Origin: Sulfurimonadaceae bacterium
GTDB lineage: Bacteria > Campylobacterota > Campylobacteria > Campylobacterales > Sulfurimonadaceae
Reading direction: 5' to 3'
Assembly (NCBI GenBank): GCA_041548245.1
Contig: JBFESZ010000064.1
Coordinates: forward strand, 1 to 12,135
DNA: 12,135 bases
Part shown: in pieces, positions 3,636 to 12,135 of the stretch
How positions within the stretch are numbered: position 1 is the stretch's first letter
How the letters are laid out: every line of letters begins with the position of its first letter
Notes under the pieces: model-generated
Told to the model about the DNA's origin: nothing
The model's input: only the letters and a program-made list of their open reading frames with translations
The model's database searches: none
Made by a program: the position numbers and the translations under genes

Positions 3636-5471
3636 ATGATACAACTTTCAAATGTCTCCAAGAGTTTTGGTGAACAAGAACTGTTTACCCAGCTTAGTTT
3701 TAAACTCAATTCCGGGAACAGGGTCGGATTAGTCGGTCGAAACGGAAGCGGAAAATCGACACTGTTCAAATTGATACTCGGTGAAGAGCATTGTGACGAG
3801 GGTGAAGTGATCATTCCAAAAGGTTACCGTATAGGTGCTTTAAGGCAACATCTGAAGTTTACGGAGTCTACGTTGCGTGAAGAGGCTGCGCTTGCTTTGC
3901 AAGGCGATGCCAAATATGATGTCTATAAGGTAGAAAAGATCCTTTTTGGTCTGGGATTTGTTCAGGAAGATCTGGATAAGGACCCTTTATCCTTTTCGGG
4001 AGGCTATCAAATCCGTATAAACCTGGCCAAACTTCTGGTGACAGAACCCAATCTTCTGTTGCTGGATGAGCCTACCAACTACCTCGATATCCTCTCTTTA
4101 CGATGGCTGAGGTCTTTTTTACGCTCTTTTCAGGGTGAAGTCATCTTGATTACCCATGACAGAGATTTCATGGACGCCATCACAACACATACAATGGGGA
4201 TAGTACGCCGGTCATTAAATATTATTCCCGGAGATACACACAAGTTCTATGAACAGCTCAAAAGCAATGATGAACTTTATGAGAAACAGAAGGCTTCTCA
4301 GGAGAGAAAACGTAAGGAACTTGAAGAGTTTATTGCGAAAAACAAAGCCCGTGCCTCTACTGCAGCGCAGGCACAGTCTAAAGTCAAACAGTTAGAGAAG
4401 ATGGAGCAGATGGATGATCTTGGGTTCGATGCGACACTGAAGTTTGATTTTAACTTCCAAGAGACTCCGGCAAAGGTGCTTTTAGAGGTCAAAGACCTGA
4501 GTTTTGGATATACGCCTGAAAAGATTCTTTTCAAAGATATCGCCTTTGCTCTTGGAAAAGGGGAGTGCCTTGCAATCATAGGAAAGAACGGTACGGGGAA
4601 ATCTACCCTTTTAAACACCATCGCAGGTGAGTTGAAACCGTTAAACGGAGAGGTCTCATATCATCCTAGCACGGCTACGGGACATTTCGGTCAGACAAAT
4701 ATTGACAGGCTTGACCCCAACAACACGATAACAGATGAGATATATAATGCCAATCCAAAGCTCTCCACAGCTGCGGTTAGAAGTATCTGCGGAGGTATGA
4801 TGTTCAGTGGAAGCGCTGCGGATAAAAAAGTCTCCCTGCTTTCGGGAGGAGAGAAGAGCAGGGTAATGCTTGCCCAGATCTTGGCGCGCCCTGCAAACCT
4901 TCTTTTCCTGGATGAGCCGACACATCACCTTGACATGGACTCTATCGAAGCATTGACGAAAGCAATCAAAAACTTCAAGGGCTCTGTCATCATCGTCTCT
5001 CACTCCGAAGAGCTTTTACGCAGGGTCGCGGATAGGCTCATCATTTTTGCCAAGGACACGGCAGAGTACTTTGACGGAGGGTATGACCTCTTTTTAGAGA
5101 AGATCGGATGGGACGAAGAGGAAGAGGTAGAAAAGGTCAAGACAGTACCAAAGGTCAATAAAAAAGAGAACAAGAAGCTACGTGCGGCAATGGTACAAGA
5201 GCGGAATAAGCTGGCTTCTCCTTTGAAAAAAGAGATTGAGAAACTTGAGAACATGATTATGGAACTTGAAGAGATGGTTGCTCTGCATCATGATGAGCTT
5301 ATCACGGCTTCAAACGAGGGAGAAAGTTCTAGAGTAATGGAGCTTTCCAAACTTGTCTCGCAAGAGGAGAAAAAGATTGAAGAGGCGTTTGAAGGCCTTG
5401 AAATAAAACAGAACGCGCTGGATGATATTATGCATCAATATGAGCACAAGATTGCCGAGCTTGAACTATGA
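3636..5471 (+). CDS. ABC-F family ribosome-associated ATPase (YheS/Uup/YdiF-like)
   Basis: Two ABC domains: Walker A GRNGSGKS and GKNGTGKS, signatures FSGG and LSGGE, Walker B LLLLDEPTN and LLFLDEPTH. Helical inter-domain linker, C-terminal coiled coil, no TM segments. Confidence 0.95.
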   Translation: MIQLSNVSKSFGEQELFTQLSFKLNSGNRVGLVGRNGSGKSTLFKLILGEEHCDEGEVIIPKGYRIGALRQHLKFTESTLREEAALALQGDAKYDVYKVEKILFGLGFVQEDLDKDPLSFSGGYQIRINLAKLLVTEPNLLLLDEPTNYLDILSLRWLRSFLRSFQGEVILITHDRDFMDAITTHTMGIVRRSLNIIPGDTHKFYEQLKSNDELYEKQKASQERKRKELEEFIAKNKARASTAAQAQSKVKQLEKMEQMDDLGFDATLKFDFNFQETPAKVLLEVKDLSFGYTPEKILFKDIAFALGKGECLAIIGKNGTGKSTLLNTIAGELKPLNGEVSYHPSTATGHFGQTNIDRLDPNNTITDEIYNANPKLSTAAVRSICGGMMFSGSAADKKVSLLSGGEKSRVMLAQILARPANLLFLDEPTHHLDMDSIEALTKAIKNFKGSVIIVSHSEELLRRVADRLIIFAKDTAEYFDGGYDLFLEKIGWDEEEEVEKVKTVPKVNKKENKKLRAAMVQERNKLASPLKKEIEKLENMIMELEEMVALHHDELITASNEGESSRVMELSKLVSQEEKKIEEAFEGLEIKQNALDDIMHQYEHKIAELEL

Positions 5472-5502
5472 CCTTGTCTAGAAAGATATATAGCAGTACA
5501 GC

Positions 5503-6327
5503 TTATAGGGTCTTTTGCATATAGTGGGCAACGCCATCATCATCATTGCTCTGCTCCAGGATAATGTCCGCAACAGCCTTTGCCTCGTCCAAGGCATTCG
5601 AGACGGCAACAGAGGTTCCTGCACGTTGAAACATGCCGACATCATTAATACTGTCGCCAAATACCGTGATGTTATCAAGGGGAGTGTTGAGGTATTCACT
5701 AAGGCTTTTAAGCGCATAGCCCTTGTCGCCGAGCGGATGTAAAATAGTCAGAAAGTAACCTTGGGTATAGTTCTCTGGTGAGAGTTTAAACTCAAAAGTT
5801 TTGCTATAACGTGTTTTGAGATACTCAGTCAGTGGGAACATCTGCTCTTTCGAACCCATGAAAACAATCTTAAAGGTCTGTTTTGTGGCATGAACTCTAG
5901 AGCATCGTCTTAGTCTTGGATCATCCTTGAAATTGAGCAAAAGCTCTTTTTGGACCTCTGTCTGCTGCAGAGGAAAATCAAATGACTCATTAAGCATACT
6001 GTCTTTTAGTCCGATGACGAAGGGATGAAGAGAAAAATGGTTGATGGCCTCTTCGATGAGTTCATTGGCCGCATCATAATCGAGAAACTTGGTCTCTATT
6101 ATCTTTTTCTCAGTCGATACGACAAGTGAACCATCAAGAAGGATCATTGGTGCATTGATCTGAAATCCTTTAAGAAGGGTAGAAACAGAGTAGAAACTGC
6201 GTGCAGTCGCAACCGACAGAAAGGCTTTTTGGCTTTTTTCATTCCAGGTGTTTCGACTAAACTCGCTGATACTCAAGTCACTGCGTAAGAAGGTATGATC
6301 CAGGTCTGTAATATAAACGTTTTCCAT
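5503..6327 (-). CDS. Cof-type HAD-IIB hydrolase; likely leaderless, true start at 6327
   Basis: MENVYITDLDHTFL (motif I), ATAR (motif II), DKG and FGDSINDVGMF (motifs III/IV), SNDDDGVA. Motif I position and a TATAAT 7 nt upstream place the start at ATG 6327, not 6423. Confidence 0.92.
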   Translation of the reverse strand: MENVYITDLDHTFLRSDLSISEFSRNTWNEKSQKAFLSVATARSFYSVSTLLKGFQINAPMILLDGSLVVSTEKKIIETKFLDYDAANELIEEAINHFSLHPFVIGLKDSMLNESFDFPLQQTEVQKELLLNFKDDPRLRRCSRVHATKQTFKIVFMGSKEQMFPLTEYLKTRYSKTFEFKLSPENYTQGYFLTILHPLGDKGYALKSLSEYLNTPLDNITVFGDSINDVGMFQRAGTSVAVSNALDEAKAVADIILEQSNDDDGVAHYMQKTL

Positions 6328-6342: not shown

Positions 6343-6481
6343 GTTCTTTGTCAATCGAAAGATGAGGATCAGTTTGGTCATTATTTCTTGAGACAGATCA
6401 TAAGAAAGAAAAGAGACATGCATTTGTAATAAGTTTTTGAGTTAATTTCTCTATAATACGGATTAAACTAGAAGGAATCAT

Positions 6482-6919
6482 ATGAAAATCATTTTATTAT
6501 TAATGACGATGCTTACATTCATGTTCGCTGCCCAGATTGATGAGTTCGCATCCGAGGTCAACTATCTACGAGACTATAATATGGCTTTAAAAACAGCGAA
6601 AGAACAACATAAGATGGTCATGGTGGTCGTTGTAGGTGACTATTGTCCATGGTGTAAAAAATTTGAGAGGAAGACATTGAAATCTTCTGAAGTAAAAGCA
6701 CAGGTGGATGAGAATTTCATCCCTGTTGTGATCGATAAGTACAAAGATAAAGGGAAGTATCCGGAAGCATATTATGCACCGCTTATTCCAGCGGTCTATT
6801 TTGTGGACCCTTCAAATGAAAAAGTACTTTTGACAACAGTCGCTTATATGAAAAAGGGAGAATATATGGAAAACATGGATGATGCATTGAGTCTTTTTTC
6901 TGAAGGAGAGAAGAGATGA
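6482..6919 (+). CDS. Exported thioredoxin-fold protein (CPWC; SoxW/thioredoxin-like)
   Basis: Sec signal peptide, ALKTAKEQHKMVMVVVVGDYCPWCKKF, cis-Pro loop LIPAVYFVD. TATAAT at 6452-6457 and SD AAGGA at 6472-6476. Confidence 0.88.
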   Translation: MKIILLLMTMLTFMFAAQIDEFASEVNYLRDYNMALKTAKEQHKMVMVVVVGDYCPWCKKFERKTLKSSEVKAQVDENFIPVVIDKYKDKGKYPEAYYAPLIPAVYFVDPSNEKVLLTTVAYMKKGEYMENMDDALSLFSEGEKR

Positions 6920-7356
6920 AAAAACTTTTTTTGTTAGCACTCCTATCTGCTCAACTCTTCTCACAGTCTTACTTTACCCTTGACAATGTTCGTTCACTTA
7001 ATCTTTATTTCGCAAGTGATGCCGAGTTTTTGACACAGGAACAAAAGGAAACTTTGAAAAAGACAGTTCGGAAGAAGCTTGAAAAAGCAGGTTTCGTCTT
7101 TGGAGAAACGGATGCCTATGTCTTTGTCGTTAAAATCGAATCTATCGGTATAGAAGAGTCTCAGGCCATTGACATTCAGGTCAAACTGGGTGAAGAGGTG
7201 ATTACGAAACGCAAAGACAATATCGAGACTTTCGCATACACTTATTTGGAACATAAGCTTGTAGAGGGTTATGATCCGTATGAAGATACTCGTGAAGCTC
7301 TTAGTTCTTTAGTTGATGGGTTCATTAATGCGCACAAAGATGACAACGAAGAATAA
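6916..7356 (+). CDS. Exported hypothetical protein, translationally coupled to the thioredoxin-fold gene
   Basis: ATGA start/stop overlap at 6916-6919; signal peptide MKKLFLLALLSAQLFS. Confidence 0.8.
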   Translation: MKKLFLLALLSAQLFSQSYFTLDNVRSLNLYFASDAEFLTQEQKETLKKTVRKKLEKAGFVFGETDAYVFVVKIESIGIEESQAIDIQVKLGEEVITKRKDNIETFAYTYLEHKLVEGYDPYEDTREALSSLVDGFINAHKDDNEE

Positions 7357-7412
7357 AGTAAAGTTAAACAGAACCTATTAAGCGATAGATTTAGTTAGAC
7401 TTGATGTTTACT

Positions 7413-7421
7413 TGATATACT
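7413..7421 (+). promoter_or_regulatory. Extended -10 (TGaTATACT) for the SOR-like gene
   Basis: TGATATACT, then SD AAGGA at 7441-7445 and ATG 7451. Confidence 0.55.
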
Positions 7422-7450
7422 TTCCGTAAACCTATTATAAAAGGAAGAGG

Positions 7451-7861
7451 ATGAAAAACCGTAGAGAATTTATTAAGTCATCATTGGTCGCTTCAACAGG
7501 CTTGCTCGCAGCGACTGCAATACCTGCAATCGCCAAAGAGAACAGTGTTAAAAATATTTTTGCGTATTCTGCAGATGAACCGGGCAGATGGGAAGGCAAA
7601 GCAGGCAGTCATGCTCCTGTCGTTACCGTGAATGGAAACAGGGTCACGGTAGAGACTAAGCATGGCATGGCTGAGATGCATTATATTGTCAAGCATACAT
7701 TGGTGACTGCTTCAGGTGAGGTGGTTGGTGAGAAAGTGTTTTTTCCAAAGAAGGATAAACAAGCTATCTCAACATACGAGATCAAGGGTGATCATAAGAA
7801 GCTGTTTGCTTTGAGCTTTTGCAACCTGCATGACCTTTGGGTAAGTGAGTTTAGTCTTTAA
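7451..7861 (+). CDS. Tat-exported 1Fe superoxide reductase / desulfoferrodoxin-family protein
   Basis: Twin-arginine signal NRREFIK...AIA. Iron ligands H(AP), H-x5-H (HGMAEMH) and CxxH (FCNLHDLW). Confidence 0.88.
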   Translation: MKNRREFIKSSLVASTGLLAATAIPAIAKENSVKNIFAYSADEPGRWEGKAGSHAPVVTVNGNRVTVETKHGMAEMHYIVKHTLVTASGEVVGEKVFFPKKDKQAISTYEIKGDHKKLFALSFCNLHDLWVSEFSL

Positions 7862-7869
7862 TCAGTGAG

Positions 7870-7907
7870 GCTATCCCTGCAAGGGGCTCATAGGGATAGC
7901 GCCTTTT
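7870..7907 (+). terminator. Probable intrinsic terminator between convergent genes
   Basis: Inverted repeat GCTATCCCT (7870-7878) / AGGGATAGC (7892-7900), followed by GCCTTTT. Confidence 0.6.
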
Positions 7908-7915
7908 GGTTTAAT

Positions 7916-8338
7916 CTACCACTCTTTTTTTAATTCGGCTTCGTCCAATACATCATAGAAACCTTTCACTTCTCGTCCACCCCAGGTATCATGGAAGACT
8001 CTTCCATTAGACTCTAGAAAATAGTGTCGAGGAACCCCTTTGGTCTGAAACCATCCTGGAATCTTATGTTGGTCTCTTGAGAGGTAGACAAGCACATAAT
8101 CTTTTTTGAGTTTCTCAATGACACCTTGGTCTGAGAGAGTTTTCTCTTTAAACCTCTTACAGAATTTACATTTGTCAGCACCAATAAAGAGGTAAACATC
8201 TTTGTTCTCTTTTTTTGCCTGAACCAAGGCTTTGTCATAGTCATGCAGCCAGTCGAGTTCAGTAGCATAGCCCGAAACCGCCATTGCTAATATTAATGCA
8301 AAAAAATTGATGATGGAAAATCTTTTTATATCGTTCAT
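7916..8338 (-). CDS. Exported thioredoxin-fold protein (CKFC)
   Basis: Signal peptide, LDWLHDYDKALVQAKKENKDVYLFIGADKCKFCKRF, cis-Pro loop GVPRHYFL. Confidence 0.88.
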   Translation of the reverse strand: MNDIKRFSIINFFALILAMAVSGYATELDWLHDYDKALVQAKKENKDVYLFIGADKCKFCKRFKEKTLSDQGVIEKLKKDYVLVYLSRDQHKIPGWFQTKGVPRHYFLESNGRVFHDTWGGREVKGFYDVLDEAELKKEW

Positions 8339-8462
8339 AGTTTTACCTAACTTATTTTAATTATAATATTTTACTAAAAATTAACTGATGAAATTCCTAA
8401 GTAATTGGCTTAGTCTATATTGTTATTGTGTGGTAAACGTGAGAATGAGATAGGGAAGAGGA

Positions 8463-8747
8463 TTAGTCTTCCTGAGGAAATTGATAGAAATAGTGGTTGA
8501 GATAATGAACGACATCATAGGTCTCATCATCAAACCAGTCCGCATCGTTTTGAAAGGCACACCATTGGACCTGTTTTTTCAGTCGTTTAAAGTTTTTTAT
8601 TTTTCGGTCTTCATCTATGAAGATATCATGACTGTGACATTTCGAGCATCTCTCTTTGTCATACAATACTTTCCCATTTTTTGTATCGGCTGGTAAAGAA
8701 GAAGGCAGGAAAAATGCAATGGCCAAACAAAATAGCTTTACGTTCAT
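8463..8747 (-). CDS. Small monoheme c-type cytochrome, probable His/Cys ligation (green-heme-protein-like)
   Basis: SD GAGG 6 nt before ATG 8747, signal peptide, CSKCH heme motif, RKIKNFKRLKKQVQWC...WFDDETYDVVHYLNHYFYQF. No Met in the mature protein. Confidence 0.82.
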   Translation of the reverse strand: MNVKLFCLAIAFFLPSSLPADTKNGKVLYDKERCSKCHSHDIFIDEDRKIKNFKRLKKQVQWCAFQNDADWFDDETYDVVHYLNHYFYQFPQED

Positions 8748-8935
8748 GAAAAACCTCTTCATCTATTAATAATACTAATAATATAACGAACTCTTATTCG
8801 ATCATTCCTTAAATATTTTTTTACGAGTATAGATAAAGGTTAATGCTTTCAATAAAATACCTTAAATATATAGCATTATATTATCTTATATTGTGTTATA
8901 ATTTTTTTTTATGATTTTAACATAGGGGTATACAG

Positions 8936-9460: not shown

Positions 9461-10891
9461 ATGCATCAAGAACAAACCTCTTTTTTCACGGGATTTTTTG
9501 AGAGCGGTCACTCTTTTGGAAAAGATGAGATCCTTTTAAAGTTTCAATACCGTGTGATCAATATGGTCTTGTTGGTGATGGGTGTTTTTACTTTTATATT
9601 TGCCATGTTGAGTACGCTCGGCATCGATCCTCTTGGAATCATACAAACGGTTGCAAACTATATCCTGACTTTTGTCTCTTTTGTCATAATCATACGTCTA
9701 AGAGGTCCTAAAAAAAACTATCTTCAAAATGCCTACTTGATGTATGGTGCGGCTATGGCTAATTTTATAACCGCGCTGGTTTTTGTCCCGCATGATGAGT
9801 TTCGGATTATCTGGTTCTATCTGCTTACCTTTGCTGCATATATCACAGGCGGTATACGTGCAGGTAGTATGATTACGGCCTTGTCTATTTTCATTGTACT
9901 TACCACCAATGTGATATATGACCTTAAACTCTCCGAAACAGCGATTATCAGTTCCGTATTGGGTCTGATTATCGCAAGTCTGTTCTTTCGTTCTTATACA
10001 AAGAAGATTATGGATTTTGAGCAAGAGATTATGGCACAACAGCTTCAACTTGCAAAGTTTAATGAGGAGCTTGAAAATAAAGTCACCCAAAAGACAAAAG
10101 AGCTGCAGGATCTTAATGAGTCACTTGAGAGTATTGTGGCCAACAAAGTCGCTAAGATCACTGAACAAGAAAGGCTGATGATCGCACAGTCACGCCTGGC
10201 AACGATGGGTGAGATGCTGAGTATGATCGCCCATCAATGGCGTCAGCCCCTCTCAACGATGACACTTTTGATTACCAAAGAGAGGTTAAAGGCGATGGTG
10301 GAAGGAACTGAGCCAAGCGAGACTGATATGATCCTTGAGAAGATATCAGATATGCTGGTCTATCTTTCTGATACGATCGATGATTTCCAAACTTATTTCA
10401 AGCCGGACAAAGCCACGCAAGAGATAGCTGTGAGTATGCTCATGGAGCGCCTTGAGCATTTCATTGAACCAAGACTTCTTCAGGAAAAAGTGACCTTAGA
10501 TATTAAGCTGCATCAAGATATGAGAATCAATACCTATACGAATGAAGTTATTCAGGCCTTTATCAATATCATCAACAATGCGATCGATGTTCTGGTAGAG
10601 AAGCGTGAGAAAGAACGTCATATCTGGATAAAGGTGGACAGTGCTGATGAGAGTGTCATGATCAGCGTAGAGGACAATGGCGGAGGTATAGATAGCGAGA
10701 TTATTGATAGGATATTTGAACCTTATTTCAGCAAGAAGTCTAAAAATGGGACGGGATTGGGATTGTATATGGCGAAGATGATCATTGAAAAACATATCGG
10801 TGGAACTCTTGATGTTGTCAACACATCAAATGGTGCACATTTCAGCATTGTTTTGCCTGCGAAGACCATACCGATGGTGTATAACGCATAA
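9461..10891 (+). CDS. Membrane-bound sensor histidine kinase (about 6 TM, coiled coil, HisKA + HATPase_c)
   Basis: H-box IAHQWRQPL, N-box NIINNAID, G1 DNGGGI, F-box FEPYF, G2 GTGLGLY. TATAAT at 9424-9429 and SD AGGA at 9452-9455. Confidence 0.95.
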   Translation: MHQEQTSFFTGFFESGHSFGKDEILLKFQYRVINMVLLVMGVFTFIFAMLSTLGIDPLGIIQTVANYILTFVSFVIIIRLRGPKKNYLQNAYLMYGAAMANFITALVFVPHDEFRIIWFYLLTFAAYITGGIRAGSMITALSIFIVLTTNVIYDLKLSETAIISSVLGLIIASLFFRSYTKKIMDFEQEIMAQQLQLAKFNEELENKVTQKTKELQDLNESLESIVANKVAKITEQERLMIAQSRLATMGEMLSMIAHQWRQPLSTMTLLITKERLKAMVEGTEPSETDMILEKISDMLVYLSDTIDDFQTYFKPDKATQEIAVSMLMERLEHFIEPRLLQEKVTLDIKLHQDMRINTYTNEVIQAFINIINNAIDVLVEKREKERHIWIKVDSADESVMISVEDNGGGIDSEIIDRIFEPYFSKKSKNGTGLGLYMAKMIIEKHIGGTLDVVNTSNGAHFSIVLPAKTIPMVYNA

Positions 10892-10945
10892 ATAAAAGAA
10901 ATAGATGGGTTTTATGAGGGATTGTTGATGCTCGGTTGCAGATAA

Positions 10946-10954
10946 TGGTATAAT
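10946..10954 (+). promoter_or_regulatory. Extended -10 (TGgTATAAT) driving the leader ORF and receptor transcript
   Basis: TGGTATAAT, then SD AAAGGGG (10966-10972) and ATG 10978. Confidence 0.65.
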
Positions 10955-10977
10955 TGCGAAAAAAGAAAGGGGCTCGT

Positions 10978-11250
10978 ATGATCAAGAAAAAATATCGACT
11001 GTTCATACTTGCTCTTGTATTTGCCGGGACACTTCTTTCCAGTTTCCATTATCATGATGATATCTATGTGGATGATGACTGTCCAGTCTGTGTCATTCAG
11101 CATGTCTTCGCCATTGCGGATATCCCTGAAACTCTCAGTTTGGAAGAGCTGGCTCTTTTTATCCTGATCCCTCTTTTAGCAGGGGAGACTTATTTCTCGT
11201 TAAAGCTCATAAACAGCTGTCCTTCCCGCGCACCTCCCTCTTTTTCCTAA
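10978..11250 (+). CDS. DUF2946/CruR-like regulatory leader protein with HxH, CxxC and C-terminal RAPP arrest motif (90 aa)
   Basis: Basic N-terminus plus hydrophobic helix (res 1-23), H24-Y-H26, C35-P-V-C38, R84-A-P-P87, three residues before the stop. SD and -10 positions favour ATG 10978 over TTG 10954. Confidence 0.8.
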   Translation: MIKKKYRLFILALVFAGTLLSSFHYHDDIYVDDDCPVCVIQHVFAIADIPETLSLEELALFILIPLLAGETYFSLKLINSCPSRAPPSFS

Positions 11251-11290
11251 CTTTAATCAACCAAACAATTATTATCATTATTAGGAAAAA
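11241..11290 (+). promoter_or_regulatory. Anti-SD/SD hairpin (translational attenuator) of the downstream receptor gene
   Basis: TTTTTCCTAA (11241-11250) is the exact reverse complement of TTAGGAAAAA (11281-11290), which contains the SD AGGA of ATG 11293. Confidence 0.7.
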
Positions 11291-11292
11291 AC

Positions 11293-12135
11293 ATGAAAAA
11301 ATTTCTTTATCTAGCTCTGTATGCTAGTACACTACTTTATGCAGATGCACCTGCACTAAAACCTATGCAAGAGCGTACATTTGTACAGTCTCAATATATG
11401 CCTGATATCTCCTTGATAGCAGATCTTTCAATGGTCTCTCGCAATAAAGAACAGGATGAACTTCCAGCTTACAGTATTCCAGGTGTGAGTGAAGCATTTT
11501 TCGGCAGTGGAGATAACGAGCATTCTCACGGTACCTATAATGCAGAAAACGGGTTTAATCTTAATTATGCCGAACTTGTCATGTCATCAAGTGTAGACCC
11601 TTTTCTCAGTTTTGATGCCGTTTTTCATTTTGCACAAGAGGGTGTGGATATTGAAGAGGCCTACTTTACGACGACTGCTCTCGGGCATGGAGTGAGGATT
11701 CGCGGCGGGAAGTTCTTAAGCGGTTTTGGCAGGCATAATGCCCAACACCATCATATATGGGACTTCAGTGACGCGCCGCTGATCTATCAAGGGTTTCTGG
11801 GCGGGGCTTTGAACGAAAAAGGTCTGCAGTTTCAATATACGCCTGCATTGTCTGAATATGTGATGTTGGGAGCTGAGGTCTTACAAGGCGAGAATGAAAG
11901 TACATTCGGCAATAGGACACAAACGTTTGAGAACAATGATACGCTTAAAGGAGCAGAAGCCCCGTCGATGTTTGTCGCTTATGCCAAGACATCTTTTGAT
12001 ATTGGTGAAACAACAGTGATCCCGGGTCTCGCCTATGTCTATGGCGAGACAAGAAGTTATCATTTGCATGAAGGTGTTGAAGAAGCGTTTAGCGGAGTCA
12101 GTTGGATATACAATGCGGAACTGACAGTAAAGCAC
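11293..12135 (+). CDS. His-rich outer-membrane beta-barrel receptor/porin, probably for metal uptake (resembles proteins annotated 'zinc-regulated TonB-dependent outer membrane receptor'); 3'-truncated, absent from the ORF track
   Basis: Own translation, open for 281 codons to the window end: MKKFLYLALYASTLLYA|DAPALK...PDISLIAD...EHSHGTYNAENGFNLNYAELVMSSSVDPF...DIEEAYFTT...RGGKFLSGFGRHNAQHHHIWDFSDAPLIY...NEKGLQFQY...LGAEVLQGENE...YHLHEG. Confidence 0.85.
   Translation, partial: MKKFLYLALYASTLLYADAPALKPMQERTFVQSQYMPDISLIADLSMVSRNKEQDELPAYSIPGVSEAFFGSGDNEHSHGTYNAENGFNLNYAELVMSSSVDPFLSFDAVFHFAQEGVDIEEAYFTTTALGHGVRIRGGKFLSGFGRHNAQHHHIWDFSDAPLIYQGFLGGALNEKGLQFQYTPALSEYVMLGAEVLQGENESTFGNRTQTFENNDTLKGAEAPSMFVAYAKTSFDIGETTVIPGLAYVYGETRSYHLHEGVEEAFSGVSWIYNAELTVKH

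Follow-up and report, generated by a model that had tools for sequence, protein, structure and literature searches.

What the small open reading frame ahead of an outer-membrane gene does, which metal it might sense, and how a signal from it could reach the next gene are the questions raised by the end of the window, the whole stretch of 12,135 nt of Sulfurimonadaceae DNA that was analysed here. The preliminary description of this DNA had proposed a CruR/DUF2946-like leader preceding a gene for outer-membrane metal uptake, and this view is upheld wherever sequence comparison can test it. In our judgement the leader is rather probably a variant of the CruR-type arrest leaders, likely one that senses zinc and whose readout is a helix masking the ribosome-binding site (RBS) of the next gene.

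The leader ORF (P0002, 10978..11250, on the forward strand like all features described below) starts with an ATG at 10978 and comprises 90 codons and a TAA stop codon (11248-11250). The promoter postulated upstream of it is recognizable as a promoter-like site at 10925..10954, with TTGATG at 10925-10930, an 18-nt spacer and a TG-extended TATAAT at 10949-10954; in a consensus scan, which reports a consensus match only, 10 of 12 positions agree, plus the TG. TGnTATAAT or TGnTATAAA is found at the same distance from the leader ATG in five of seven aligned upstream regions (those of the window and four relatives), and inspection of these regions by eye did not reveal a Zur-box-like palindrome. A Shine-Dalgarno sequence, AAGGGG (10967..10972), can be read 5 nt upstream of the ATG, and the orthologues have AAGGAG or AAGG in its place. 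The protein begins with a basic MIKKKYR, followed by a hydrophobic run of 13-15 residues (L8-S22), where a putative export signal can be read (residues 8-22, 10999..11043). The hydrophobic N-terminus had been described as a signal or transmembrane helix; the hydrophobic stretch itself is retained in 41/41 aligned leaders, but it is short and hence resembles a signal peptide more closely than a transmembrane helix. A second hydrophobic stretch (residues 55-70) lacks conservation in divergent members. The putative metal-binding segment (11047..11091) consists of H24-x-H26, eight further residues and C35-x-x-C38, with codons at 11047-49 (H24), 11053-55 (H26), 11080-82 (C35) and 11089-91 (C38). 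It is followed by a spacer of 45 residues (residues 39-83, 11092..11226), the arrest motif R84-A85-P86-P87 (11227..11238), and finally S-F-S and the TAA. The 42-nt intergenic spacer (11251..11292) is free of G up to the Shine-Dalgarno sequence of the next gene, and no terminator-like hairpin was found in it. The ORF, the HxH, CxxC and RAPP motifs and the 42-nt gap are thus all located where the preliminary description had placed them.

Conservation singles out the same motifs. In an alignment of 27 homologous proteins including the query, S21, S22, F23, H24, H26, C35, C38, D48, S83, R84, A85, P86 and P87 are invariant. In a wider set of 41 sequences, with identity down to 24%, invariance is confined to H24, H26, C35, C38 and the four residues of RAPP; these features are thus not a matter of chance. 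H42, which had been listed along with the CxxC, has to be given up, since H, Q, N or S can occur at this position; Q41 and D48 are nearly invariant. The spacer between CxxC and RAPP measures 44-46 residues in 36/36 loci (45 in the window protein), and its residues 49-83 are free to vary in kind, but not in number. Three residues follow RAPP in all 36 loci, and one in distant relatives. Across 29 distinct loci, RAPP is encoded by 23 different nucleotide strings, and therefore selection acts on the peptide. The ORFs of at least 150 aa in this genome contain no RAPP in 601,422 residues (1.75 expected), and RAPP is described as depleted from proteomes (EMBO J 2025, PMC12992588). A six-frame profile search detected the leader in 69 of 201 Sulfurimonadaceae genomes; one candidate, L011, was discarded as a chance match without RAPP. 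In other genera, a HExxH-type histidine pair takes the place of HxH and is again accompanied by CxxC. As far as can be judged from its sequence, the HxH and CxxC segment of the leader would bind metal.

The suggested relationship to DUF2946 (PF11162) was confirmed at the level of the family, but not for the window protein on its own. P0002 matches no Pfam family at E<=10 and thus stays below the PF11162 gathering score (23.7 bits), and a PF11162 search of this genome at E<=10 gave no match. When the leader and the N-terminal part of the porin were scanned against Pfam and NCBIfam, nothing usable came up; the sole match, to DsbB (E 0.038), was judged to be due to chance. PF11162 is matched weakly by 15 of 27 close homologues (best E 1.5e-4), and 11 of the 27 also weakly match the unrelated DUF2645, so that, with no Pfam match for the window protein, the evidence from single-sequence HMM searches is weak. 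Profile searches carry the family link. A profile of 41 leaders led to 866 representatives at E<=1e-3; among the 113 of these that were scanned, 19 match PF11162 at E<=1e-3, and seven exceed 23.7 bits, all of them aligning to the end of the model. The only further match at that level came from a tandem-repeat protein and was treated as spurious; P0206 (905 aa, nine matching stretches) is a protein of this kind and has neither CxxC nor RAPP. Comparison of the leader alignment with the DUF2946-passing relatives by hhalign yields 99.7% probability and E 2.3e-25 over 90 columns, a result that is partly circular because the target alignment was drawn from the matches of the leader profile itself. 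These comparisons support the assignment of the leader as a remote homologue of DUF2946, of a divergent CruR type.

The gene downstream of the leader (11293..12135) encodes a porin-like outer-membrane barrel with conserved histidines. Its first 281 codons lie in the window, and it continues on contig C60 to a total of ~420 aa. TonB-dependent receptors combine a plug domain with a 22-strand barrel and are usually longer than 600 aa. The receptor of the preliminary description is thus replaced by a porin-type barrel: the protein has ~420 aa, no plug and no Pfam or NCBIfam match, and the AlphaFold2 model of an 84%-identical orthologue (pLDDT 89) is a barrel without a plug, for which Foldseek finds C. 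jejuni MOMP, chitoporin and OprP/OprO as the best matches. On the adjoining contig, the porin gene is followed by genes for a ZnuA-type binding protein and then an ABC-3-like permease. This synteny extends to relatives, with the order leader, outer-membrane protein (OMP), ZnuA and ABC-3-like in 6/6 full loci (tblastn), and in 19/21 larger loci according to gene size and position, in agreement with Pfam in the loci sampled. Among 20 further porin loci, in which the first profile had missed the leader, 16 do carry a CxxC...RAPP leader. A metagenome scan with a four-sequence leader alignment as the query identified distant soil and wetland relatives of the leader, which precede homologous OMPs in 16/16 tested cases; ZnuA, ABC ATPase or ABC-3 genes come next. 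Judged by these sequences, the leader-porin-ZnuA module is not confined to the Sulfurimonadaceae, and is also present in distantly related bacteria of soils and wetlands.

The binding protein offers a guide to the metal. It matches PF01297 (1.8e-43), and among solved structures it is closest to Synechocystis ZnuA (E 1e-21) and B. subtilis YcdH. The histidines of its DPH, NPH and FHxS motifs, which we take to be the metal ligands of a ZnuA-type binding protein, align with those of Synechocystis ZnuA; Mn/Fe-type binding proteins have a glutamate as the third ligand. Zinc gains support over copper because the binding protein of the operon belongs to the ZnuA family, has the three histidines and has zinc ZnuA proteins as its nearest solved relatives, in line with the earlier preference for zinc or a similar metal. 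From their sequences, the porin, ZnuA-type and ABC-3-like genes look like zinc-uptake genes, and the ligand sensed by the leader is probably zinc. A different sensed or transported metal (copper, nickel, cobalt, manganese or iron) is unlikely, but has arguments in its favour that deserve attention. CXXC motifs classically bind Cu(I), all characterized DUF2946 members (CruR and CutF) sense copper, and His-only CutF-like clusters adjoin HupE/UreJ nickel/cobalt genes. In NCBIfam, the zinc protein AztC scores best against the binding protein (2.7e-28), with the manganese protein MntC close by (6.8e-27) and all matches below the cut-offs. These arguments have to be set against the zinc-type histidines and relatives of the binding protein, the ligand set of the leader (His2Cys2, or HExxH and CxxC) and, for copper, the 21 larger loci, in which no copper-handling gene was seen. 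The permease matches ABC-3 weakly (30-38 bits), and an ATPase gene is absent from the operon in all 21 larger loci, both of which count against the proposed import of metal. A literature search did not turn up a report of a CruR/CutF-type leader linked to zinc or ZnuA; the sole link between DUF2946 and zinc that was found is a Caulobacter Zur-regulon table with DUF2946 genes beside czr efflux genes.

How the leader could act on the porin gene is suggested by the junction between the two. The last 2.3 codons of the leader and its stop codon form an anti-Shine-Dalgarno sequence, UUUUUCCUAA (11241..11250), which is the perfect 10-bp complement of UUAGGAAAAA (11281..11290), the segment that includes the Shine-Dalgarno sequence AGGA (11283-11286) of the porin gene. 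A complementary run this long is rare in this genome, being seen at only 3 of its 1054 gene starts. The local fold with the helix is thermodynamically ordinary (z = -0.07 vs shuffles), and at 27.5% of the gene starts of this genome an upstream duplex reaches a stability of -10.1 kcal/mol or more. In the comparison of loci, the mean duplex energy is -8.40 kcal/mol for cognate and -6.48 kcal/mol for non-cognate pairs (matched by 0/2000 permutations). The best duplex takes in the Shine-Dalgarno core in 28/28 distinct loci and at least two bases of the stop codon in 23/28; these pairings, like the compensatory pairs below, were fitted per sequence, and it has to be borne in mind that a pyrimidine-rich tail pairs with any Shine-Dalgarno sequence and that related genomes are not independent. 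Compensatory pairs are found at the last sense base (C-G 17, U-A 9), three bases before it (C-G 13, U-A 10) and just past the stop (A-U 9, U-A 10 and A-U 7, U-A 6); since the distance from Shine-Dalgarno sequence to start varies, the 3' arm is out of register in the MAFFT junction alignment, and the pairs were tallied per sequence, which leans towards structure. The terminal codon of the leader in 29 distinct loci is TCC (13), TCT (11), TTC (4) or TCA (1), so that TCC, TCT or TTC is used in 28/29, compared with 33% TCY among the serine codons of the genome. Within these bounds, the pairing between the leader end and the porin Shine-Dalgarno sequence covaries across the 28 loci, an observation new in this analysis, and the helix would control translation initiation of the porin.

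Taken together, leader and helix suggest the following course of events. [quoted passage not shown] The predicted positions, with codon 11233-35 (Pro86) occupying the P site and codon 11236-38 (Pro87) the A site, are modelled on the ApdA/ApdP structures and the CruR toeprint. A ribosome stalled in this manner would cover ~15 nt past the P-site codon, including most of 11241-11250, so that pairing with 11281-11290 would be prevented. The porin Shine-Dalgarno sequence (11283-86) would be left free and the porin translated; the following genes, which are closely spaced or overlap, would probably be translated as well. During the stall, the H24xH26...C35xxC38 segment would sit 48-62 residues from the peptidyl-transferase center, and hence outside the exit tunnel. 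Metal, probably Zn(II), would fold or trap the segment there and pull on the nascent chain, acting like any folding or translocation force on RAPP/RAGP arrests. After release of the arrest, three more codons would be read, and the ribosome would terminate at the stop codon inside the helix and depart; the helix would re-form and uptake would be off. We infer both that the ribosome stalls at the RAPP of the leader and that metal releases rather than induces this stall.

The closest characterized relative is CruR (Bp2923) of Bordetella pertussis, a DUF2946/PF11162 protein encoded by a copper-responsive uORF (Roy et al. 2022, PMC9426467); the earlier account of it, with CXXC and RAPP and a TonB-dependent transporter downstream, agrees with that publication. 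CXXC and RAPP are reported to be separated by 45 intervening residues in CruR and, within +/-1-2 residues, in >2000 DUF2946 proteins, over 95% of which have an N-terminal export signal (PMC9426467). Mutation of RAPP in CruR abolishes downstream expression and mutation of CXXC abolishes the copper response, and CruR acts through a long spacer and Rho, with a dispensable signal peptide (PMC9426467). The arrest has been shown in vitro, with the two proline codons in the P and A sites (EMBO J 2025, PMC12992588). As far as CruR is described in these sources, the window leader shares with it the small, here putatively exported, protein encoded first in an operon and followed by an outer-membrane uptake gene, the CXXC, a RAPP that ends three residues short of the C-terminus, exactly 45 residues between the two motifs, and the expected logic that metal switches uptake off. 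In contrast, the window leader has 90 aa and an extra invariant HxH, where CruR has 145 aa; its spacer has 42 nt and a likely RBS-hiding helix instead of 162 nt and Rho termination; porin and ZnuA/ABC-3-like genes take the place of a TonB-dependent transporter and a PepSY_TM protein; and the likely metal is zinc, not copper. Campylobacterota hosts of CruR homologues are not named in the main text of PMC9426467, nor do the names Sulfurimonas, Campylobacter, Helicobacter or Arcobacter appear in three of its supplementary files. CutF of Rhodobacter capsulatus, a DUF2946-like protein with a copper-induced stall, has the detoxifying oxidase CutO as its target (PMC9973294; 10.1101/2025.02.05.636593). 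According to these reports it resembles the window leader, as the latter is proposed to work here, in being an exported DUF2946-like protein that acts in cis only and by an mRNA stem that shields the next RBS, opened in CutF by a stall near the C-terminus and predicted to be so here. It differs in having CxxxC and an EF-P-dependent PPP repeat instead of CxxC and RAPP, and the 5' arm of the stem in the window is made of the last codons and the stop codon of the leader itself. CruR and CutF have opposite polarity, and one relies on Rho and the other on a stem-loop, so the characterized relatives disagree on mechanism. The Sulfurimonadaceae leaders may be among the 5,334 CutF-like proteins of Ozturk et al. 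2023 (PMC9973294, File S1).

In view of this disagreement, readout and polarity of the window system need to be weighed as well as the metal. A CruR-like readout would have the stall block Rho loading and its release lead to Rho termination before or inside the porin gene, with the helix incidental or secondary. The mechanism is demonstrated in the closest characterized relative, the spacer at 11251-11282 is rut-like in containing C but no G, and a porin ORF left untranslated would in any case be prone to Rho polarity, so that both layers could be combined. However, the spacer is short, having 42 nt in the window and measuring 36-66 nt in the majority of Sulfurimonadaceae loci, as against 162 nt in B. 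pertussis, and a model with Rho alone leaves the covariation of the helix and the bias of the last codon unexplained. We therefore consider the RBS-hiding helix the more likely readout, and the Rho alternative improbable. The helix would also serve a leader of CutF-type polarity, in which metal induces or prolongs the stall and the operon is on with metal, for sequestration or tolerance and not for scavenging; CutF (DUF2946) does stall when it binds copper, and thereby opens a stem-loop that covers the RBS of the following gene, the same readout as proposed here. Its CxxxC, EF-P-dependent PPP repeat and downstream detoxifying enzyme are all missing here, however, and CxxC, RAPP, the 45-residue spacer and the uptake-type genes match CruR. 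RAPP also stalls by itself with many upstream sequences, and we regard the CutF polarity as quite improbable.

It is also conceivable that there is no regulatory arrest on metal at all. With its putative export signal and conserved putative metal ligands, the leader could be a stable small membrane or periplasmic accessory that binds metal, such as a chaperone between porin and binding protein, with a structural role for RAPP. This is very unlikely: residues 49-83 vary and only their number is fixed, RAPP is invariant, stands three residues (one in distant relatives) before the stop and is avoided by proteomes, and the CruR and CutF proteins are undetectable in cells and act in cis. Least probable is an arrest that monitors the capacity for export or membrane insertion in the manner of SecM, ApdA and ApdP. 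It would account for RAPP and the putative N-terminal export signal, as in Sec-monitoring arrest peptides, but the downstream genes (porin, ZnuA, ABC-3-like) are not sec or yidC, and the invariant histidines and cysteines would be left unexplained.

In SecM, the stalled ribosome exposes the secA ribosome-binding site. As described by Morici et al. 2024 (PMC10951233), SecM and ApdA/ApdP have an N-terminal export signal and are released by pulling force, as proposed for the window leader, but they monitor export, precede sec or yidC genes and lack conserved metal ligands. A parallel for a force generated by zinc is artificial. In ADR1a zinc finger-SecM fusions, Zn(II)-dependent folding of the Cys2His2 finger releases the RAGP-type arrest, with half-maximal release at ~1 uM Zn (Nilsson et al. 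2015, PMC4571824). Both nascent chains carry two cysteines and two histidines, but the ADR1a finger is reported to fold while still in the tunnel, at a distance of 24-26 residues from the P site (PMC4571824). The last cysteine of the window leader is 48 residues from the P site, on a chain with a putative export signal, and the force would therefore be generated once the segment has left the tunnel, perhaps at the translocon or past it.

A bolder version of the preferred reading, an arrest leader sensing zinc with the helix as its readout, is that this is the first natural zinc-responsive arrest peptide, in which a His2Cys2 sensor generates the force that releases a RAPP stall, the stall serves only to hold the helix open, and the controlled genes are unrecognized His-lined outer-membrane zinc porins with an ATPase-less ZnuA/ZnuB-like pair. 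We put this forward tentatively, as a possibility to which we give somewhat less than even credence. Metal-sensing arrest peptides are a recent finding, with CruR in 2022 and CutF in 2023-2025; every characterized case senses copper, and the two prototypes differ in polarity, readout and the site of metal sensing. The clade described here offers a compact and testable third system, with a 90-codon leader, a 42-nt spacer, a simple His2Cys2 sensor and a different predicted metal, and its readout helix is amenable to compensatory mutation. If the reading holds, it would widen nascent-chain metal sensing from copper to zinc, provide a natural counterpart to the engineered zinc-finger/SecM force experiments, and point to outer-membrane zinc channels that form a new family. 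To our knowledge, little is understood of how zinc passes the outer membrane where no TonB-dependent receptor takes part.

A GTDB survey of small ORFs with RAPP or RGPP describes, from many phyla, exported leaders with C-terminal RAPP that stand ahead of TonB-dependent receptors and of copper genes (PMC12992588). The main text of this survey does not contain the word zinc, and no helix of the kind predicted here is described in the passages compared. Leaders of the window type may be counted in it, since some of the porin homologues are annotated as 'TonB-dependent receptor'; others are labelled 'hypothetical'. The locus thus also brings a gain in annotation, for a leader that is overlooked by Pfam and many gene callers and a porin that is inconsistently named.

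The leader is read from the sequence as 90 codons on the forward strand, from an ATG at 10978 to a TAA at 11248-11250. Its Shine-Dalgarno sequence, AAGGGG, lies 5 nt 5' of the ATG, and a promoter-like site with a consensus match (TTGATG, 18 nt, TG-extended TATAAT) occupies 10925-10954 of the same strand. The extended -10 element recurs in five of seven aligned upstream regions, those of the window and four relatives. A longer reading from a TTG at 10954 lacks support: homologues start at the MIKKK position with ATG or GTG. The product consists of MIKKKYR, 13-15 hydrophobic residues, SSFH24YH26, eight residues, C35PVC38, 45 residues (39-83), R84APP87 and a final SFS. The next gene starts at 11293 (+), 42 nt past the leader stop, and runs off the contig end. 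Each feature listed for this region in the preliminary description was found in its place when the sequence was re-read.

In an alignment of the 27 proteins (84-104 aa, query included) listed by a word-based search, S21, S22, F23, H24, H26, C35, C38, D48, S83, R84, A85, P86 and P87 are invariant. A six-frame profile search located the leader ORF in 69 of 201 Sulfurimonadaceae genomes, from 14 of 23 genera. ORFs were extracted from 36 loci (29 distinct) with a regular expression that required CxxC and R[AG]PP; in all 36, the spacer between the two motifs has 44-46 residues and the tail after RAPP exactly three. When 41 sequences were aligned, down to 24% identity, the sole invariant columns were H24, H26, C35, C38, R84, A85, P86 and P87. 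The CxxC and RAPP, on whose conservation the preliminary description had staked its reading, are thus both retained throughout, and H42, which it had named beside the CxxC, is not conserved. In the same alignment residues 49-83 are free to vary, and the second hydrophobic stretch of the window leader is no family feature. RAPP is written by 23 different nucleotide strings across the 29 distinct loci, which argues that selection sees the peptide. The motif has 0 occurrences in this genome's ORFs of at least 150 aa (601,422 residues; 1.75 expected), in agreement with the depletion of RAPP from bacterial proteomes described in the available text of PMC12992588.

According to the accessible parts of PMC9426467, CXXC and RAPP are the hallmarks of DUF2946, more than 95% of its members have an export signal, and their genes stand first in their operons; the preliminary description of CruR as a DUF2946 protein with CXXC and RAPP agrees with this source. 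The window leader resembles CruR in its CXXC, its RAPP, the exactly 45 intervening residues, the three-residue tail and the first place in the operon; its basic N-terminus with the hydrophobic residues behind it may be an export signal. In CruR, a spacer changed by +5 or -5 residues weakens the metal response. The leader itself has no Pfam match at E<=10, and a PF11162 (DUF2946) search of this genome gave none. Weak PF11162 matches are present in 15 of the 27 close homologues (best E 1.5e-4), and weak matches to the unrelated DUF2645 in 11 of them. A profile built from the 41 leaders and run against 1.84 billion representative proteins retrieved 866 at E<=1e-3 and 63 at E<=1e-10. PF11162 was matched at E<=1e-3 by 19 of 113 profile hits scanned, seven of them above the 23.7-bit cut-off, and the alignment of each matching relative covers the C-terminal half of the model up to the final position. 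The sole other match at that level among the 113, P0206 (a repeat protein of 905 aa with about nine tandem repeats; leader-profile E 1.5e-11), is without CxxC or RAPP and was set aside as most likely compositional and spurious. Profile-profile comparison of the leaders with 11 relatives gave 99.7% probability and E 2.3e-25 over 90 columns, and is partly circular because the target came from the same profile's hits. The expected link to DUF2946 is therefore missing at the level of a direct Pfam match and present as remote homology by profile methods. On this evidence, we assign the leader to a divergent subfamily of the DUF2946/CruR/CutF superfamily, below the Pfam threshold. That it is a conserved arrest leader of the DUF2946 type, with stalling predicted, we regard as very probable.

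The window is one entire contig (C64) of a 2.16-Mb assembly in 165 contigs. Its last 141 bases (11995-12135) are identical, in reverse orientation, to the end of contig C60 (12427-12567). This is an assembly-graph overlap, so that the operon is split over two contigs and the window holds its first 1.2 kb only. On C60 the barrel gene is completed (about 420 aa in total), and after it come a ZnuA-family binding protein (293 aa; PF01297, 1.8e-43), a membrane protein (262 aa) with a weak ABC-3 match (2e-9), and a PAS histidine kinase. The barrel protein has no match in Pfam or NCBIfam. More than 480 homologues of about 420-430 aa exist, most of them unnamed and a few labelled "TonB-dependent receptor" or "zinc-regulated TonB-dependent outer membrane receptor". 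Because the window copy is split, a structure was predicted for the full-length orthologue P0029 (84% identical), with a 113-sequence alignment. The model is a plug-less beta-barrel (pLDDT 89, pTM 0.85), and its best solved Foldseek matches are porins, namely C. jejuni MOMP, chitoporin and OprP/OprO (TM 0.57). Judged by the model, the gene product is a porin-type channel and not a TonB-dependent receptor. Invariant residues include N149, H152, H154, W156 and F158 (consensus QHHHxWDF), in a long loop between strands 134-142 and 174-182, and also C-terminal H415, H418 and F420. Strand order suggests that the QHHHxWDF loop corresponds to the constriction loop of classical porins.

Binding proteins of the zinc type have three histidines, and those of the Mn/Fe type His-His-Glu-Asp. 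The closest solved relatives of the binding protein are Synechocystis ZnuA (1PQ4, 2OV1; E 1e-21) and B. subtilis YcdH, and in the alignment its DPH, NPH and FHDS motifs each have their histidine matched by one in these proteins. In NCBIfam the zinc protein AztC scores best, with the Mn-type MntC close behind and all scores under the cut-offs. A canonical operon of znuA, ABC ATPase and ABC-3 genes is present elsewhere in the genome, on contig C97 (208 bits). The permease-like protein of the leader operon matches ABC-3 weakly (30-43 bits; ZnuA and ABC-3-like genes at 6357-7992 of the C60 locus), and an ATPase gene next to the pair is absent in all 21 larger loci. The pair may borrow the ATPase of the C97 operon or work without one.

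In each of six full loci, which belong to named Sulfurimonadaceae and Campylobacterales assemblies, tblastn finds leader, porin, ZnuA and ABC-3-like genes in this order. Gene sizes and positions give the same order in 19 of 21 larger loci, with Pfam confirmation in those sampled. One exception (L043) has the porin, a gap and ABC-3; the other (L057) has a different outer-membrane protein of the Phenol_MetA_deg type. Such a protein (337 aa, N-terminal CN(G/S)SH) follows the leaders of both L057 (genome G185) and L016 (genome G110), and G185 has a second leader copy (L058) ahead of the usual porin operon. The porin family is present in 123 of the 201 Sulfurimonadaceae genomes, compared with 69 that have a leader match. 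Upstream of 20 porin genes without such a match (L113-L132), 16 carry a small CxxC...RAPP ORF, two windows were misplaced, and one locus (L129) lacks the leader ORF; at L119, NAPP replaces RAPP. The histidines of the 16 are arranged as HExEH (HE[VIL]EHI, an HExxH-like pair), HELLPxH or HTLSAHH instead of HxH, and leaders of other genera missed by the first profile retain CxxC, spacer and RAPP. The leader is thus near-universal ahead of the porin, and of the two halves of the sensor it is the histidine one that varies.

Of 50 loci found in metagenomes with four DUF2946-passing relatives, 35 have a CxxC...R[AG]PP ORF by pattern, with leaders of the form FHHHxDGxDHxDCxIC ... RAPP plus one residue. 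The first ORF 3' of these leaders is homologous to the porin in 16 of 16 cases tested (blastp E 1.5e-6 to 8e-55), and ZnuA, ABC ATPase or ABC-3 genes then follow where the locus is long enough; one locus has a true TonB-dependent receptor in the porin's place. From this synteny, the leader-porin-ZnuA module is old and widespread. The proposal that CxxC-RAPP leaders precede homologues of the downstream gene holds in most loci examined, and the core of the preliminary interpretation, a CruR/DUF2946-like leader before an outer-membrane uptake gene, is backed by motifs, spacer, profile homology and synteny alike.

CruR controls Rho through a 162-nt spacer (PMC9426467, accessible text), whereas here the spacer has 42 nt, and no terminator-like hairpin was seen in it. 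Folding of 11190-11320 predicts instead a helix of 10 perfect base pairs with a 30-nt loop. Its 5' arm UUUUUCCUAA (11241-11250, +) takes in the last base of codon 88, codons 89-90 and the stop, and its 3' arm UUAGGAAAAA (11281-11290, +) contains the porin AGGA. The fold energy is no better than that of shuffled sequence (z = -0.07), and at 27.5% of 1054 gene starts of this genome the upstream duplex reaches -10.1 kcal/mol or better; a perfect complement of at least 10 nt is found at only three of the 1054. The same arrangement emerges when the junction is folded to minimum energy in the window, in six relatives and in most of the 29 distinct loci. The best duplex of the leader end with the 24 nt 5' of the porin start spans the Shine-Dalgarno core in 28 of 28 loci and takes in at least two stop-codon bases in 23. 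Cognate duplexes average -8.40 kcal/mol and non-cognate ones -6.48, and 0 of 2000 permutations reach the cognate mean. In these comparisons and in the pair counts below, duplexes were fitted per sequence, a pyrimidine tail pairs with any Shine-Dalgarno sequence, and the genomes are related and not independent.

The pairs vary between loci, with changes in both partners: C-G 17, U-A 9 and U-G 1 at the last sense base; C-G 13 and U-A 10 three bases before it; A-U 9 and U-A 10 at the first base after the stop; A-U 7 and U-A 6 at the second. The middle stop-codon base forms A-U in 20 loci and G-C in the single locus with a UGA stop. The last codon is TCC in 13 leaders, TCT in 11, TTC in four and TCA in one, and TCY accounts for 24 of 25 terminal serines, compared with 33% of serine codons genome-wide. 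Set against the free synonymous variation in RAPP, this bias points to selection on the RNA at the leader's last codon. The comparative support for the helix is stronger than that from the single-genome controls, which are mixed, and we think it rather likely that a helix hiding the Shine-Dalgarno sequence is the main readout. GC-richer relatives (L063-L111) have a one-residue tail and a spacer of 33-143 nt, and their Ala-Pro-Pro codons (GCUCCUCC) are complementary to the GGAGGAGC Shine-Dalgarno sequence of the next gene. The arrest-site codons may there double as an anti-Shine-Dalgarno sequence; the statistics are weak (cognate -13.35, non-cognate -12.04 kcal/mol; 68 of 2000 permutations as good).

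Ribosomes protect the mRNA for about 15 nt past the first base in the P site. By analogy with CruR, for which toeprinting places the two Pro codons in the P and A sites at arrest (PMC12992588, available text), the codon at 11233-35 would occupy the P site of the stalled ribosome. The ribosome would then reach about 11248 and cover eight of the 10 bases of the 5' arm, leaving the porin Shine-Dalgarno sequence, 35 nt further on, free and unobstructed. CutF offers a precedent, as its stall is described to melt a stem over the next gene's ribosome-binding site. At the predicted stall, 48 residues separate C38 from the P-site residue and 62 separate H24 from it; the exit tunnel takes up about 30 residues of extended chain (PMC4571824, accessible text), so that the His/Cys segment should lie outside it. 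The sensor may act only once it has been exported.

In CruR, the proposal is that copper bound to CXXC relieves the stall, and co-translational folding may be the means (PMC9426467, accessible text); in CutF, periplasmic copper is described to induce it. With uptake-type genes downstream and the motifs of CruR, not those of CutF, the CruR polarity is by analogy more likely: metal would release the stall, the helix would close, and uptake would be switched off. As to the metal, copper is a serious alternative, being the metal to which CruR and CutF respond, and nickel or cobalt, suggested together with zinc in the preliminary description, is another. Zinc is favoured by the leader's His2Cys2 ligand set (HExxH and CxxC in other genera), by the three aligned histidines of the binding protein and its nearest solved relatives, which are zinc proteins, and by the conserved porin histidines. 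Zn(II)-dependent folding of the engineered Cys2His2 finger ADR1a releases SecM arrest, with a half-maximum at about 1 uM (PMC4571824, accessible text). The case for zinc combined with release by metal appears evenly balanced; for the explanation as a whole, with arrest leader, zinc and helix readout, we lean modestly towards acceptance. In a table of PMC4176598, the Caulobacter DUF2946 gene CC2720 is listed with a predicted Zur box, immediately ahead of the zinc/cadmium efflux genes czrCBA. The entry is left without comment there and hints at a zinc connection for some DUF2946 leaders.

Metal-sensing DUF2946 leaders are already known from CruR and CutF (PMC9426467, PMC9973294). Two large surveys, in their available parts, describe thousands of related small ORFs before genes for TonB-dependent receptors, RND efflux, copper chaperones and HupE/UreJ, and both state that not all need be copper-specific. 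The word "zinc" has 0 occurrences in the main texts of Roy 2022, the Ozturk 2022 preprint and the EMBO J 2025 paper (PMC12992588). The homologue hosts named in the accessible text of Roy 2022 (PMC9426467) are alpha-, beta- and gammaproteobacteria, Planctomycetes, Firmicutes and Deinococcus, and no mention of a Campylobacterota member was found there. A helix formed by the leader's own stop-codon region, or a CruR/CutF-type leader linked to zinc or ZnuA, was not found described in the available literature; PMC9973294 File S1 and the PMC12992588 source data may list members of the clade, above all from loci whose porin bears the label TonB-dependent receptor. The system involves no new principle and is compact and widespread. 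If the explanation is correct, nascent-chain metal sensing could extend to zinc, and a new class of outer-membrane zinc channel could be revealed.

Histidine kinases flank the operon on both sides (9461-10891 of the window; 4558-6270 of the C60 locus), both with an HQWRQPLS H-box. They are not conserved beside the operon elsewhere, where GGDEF proteins, a Suv3-like helicase or a P-type ATPase are found instead. Further upstream in the window, genes for small exported proteins of redox type are clustered at 6482-8762. Two of them encode thioredoxin-like proteins (6482-6919, +; 7916-8338, -) and one a protein of 146 aa without a Pfam match (6916-7356, +). The other two products are a desulfoferrodoxin-domain protein with a Tat-like N-terminus (7451-7861, +) and a protein of 99 aa in which CSKCH resembles a haem-c motif (8463-8762, -).
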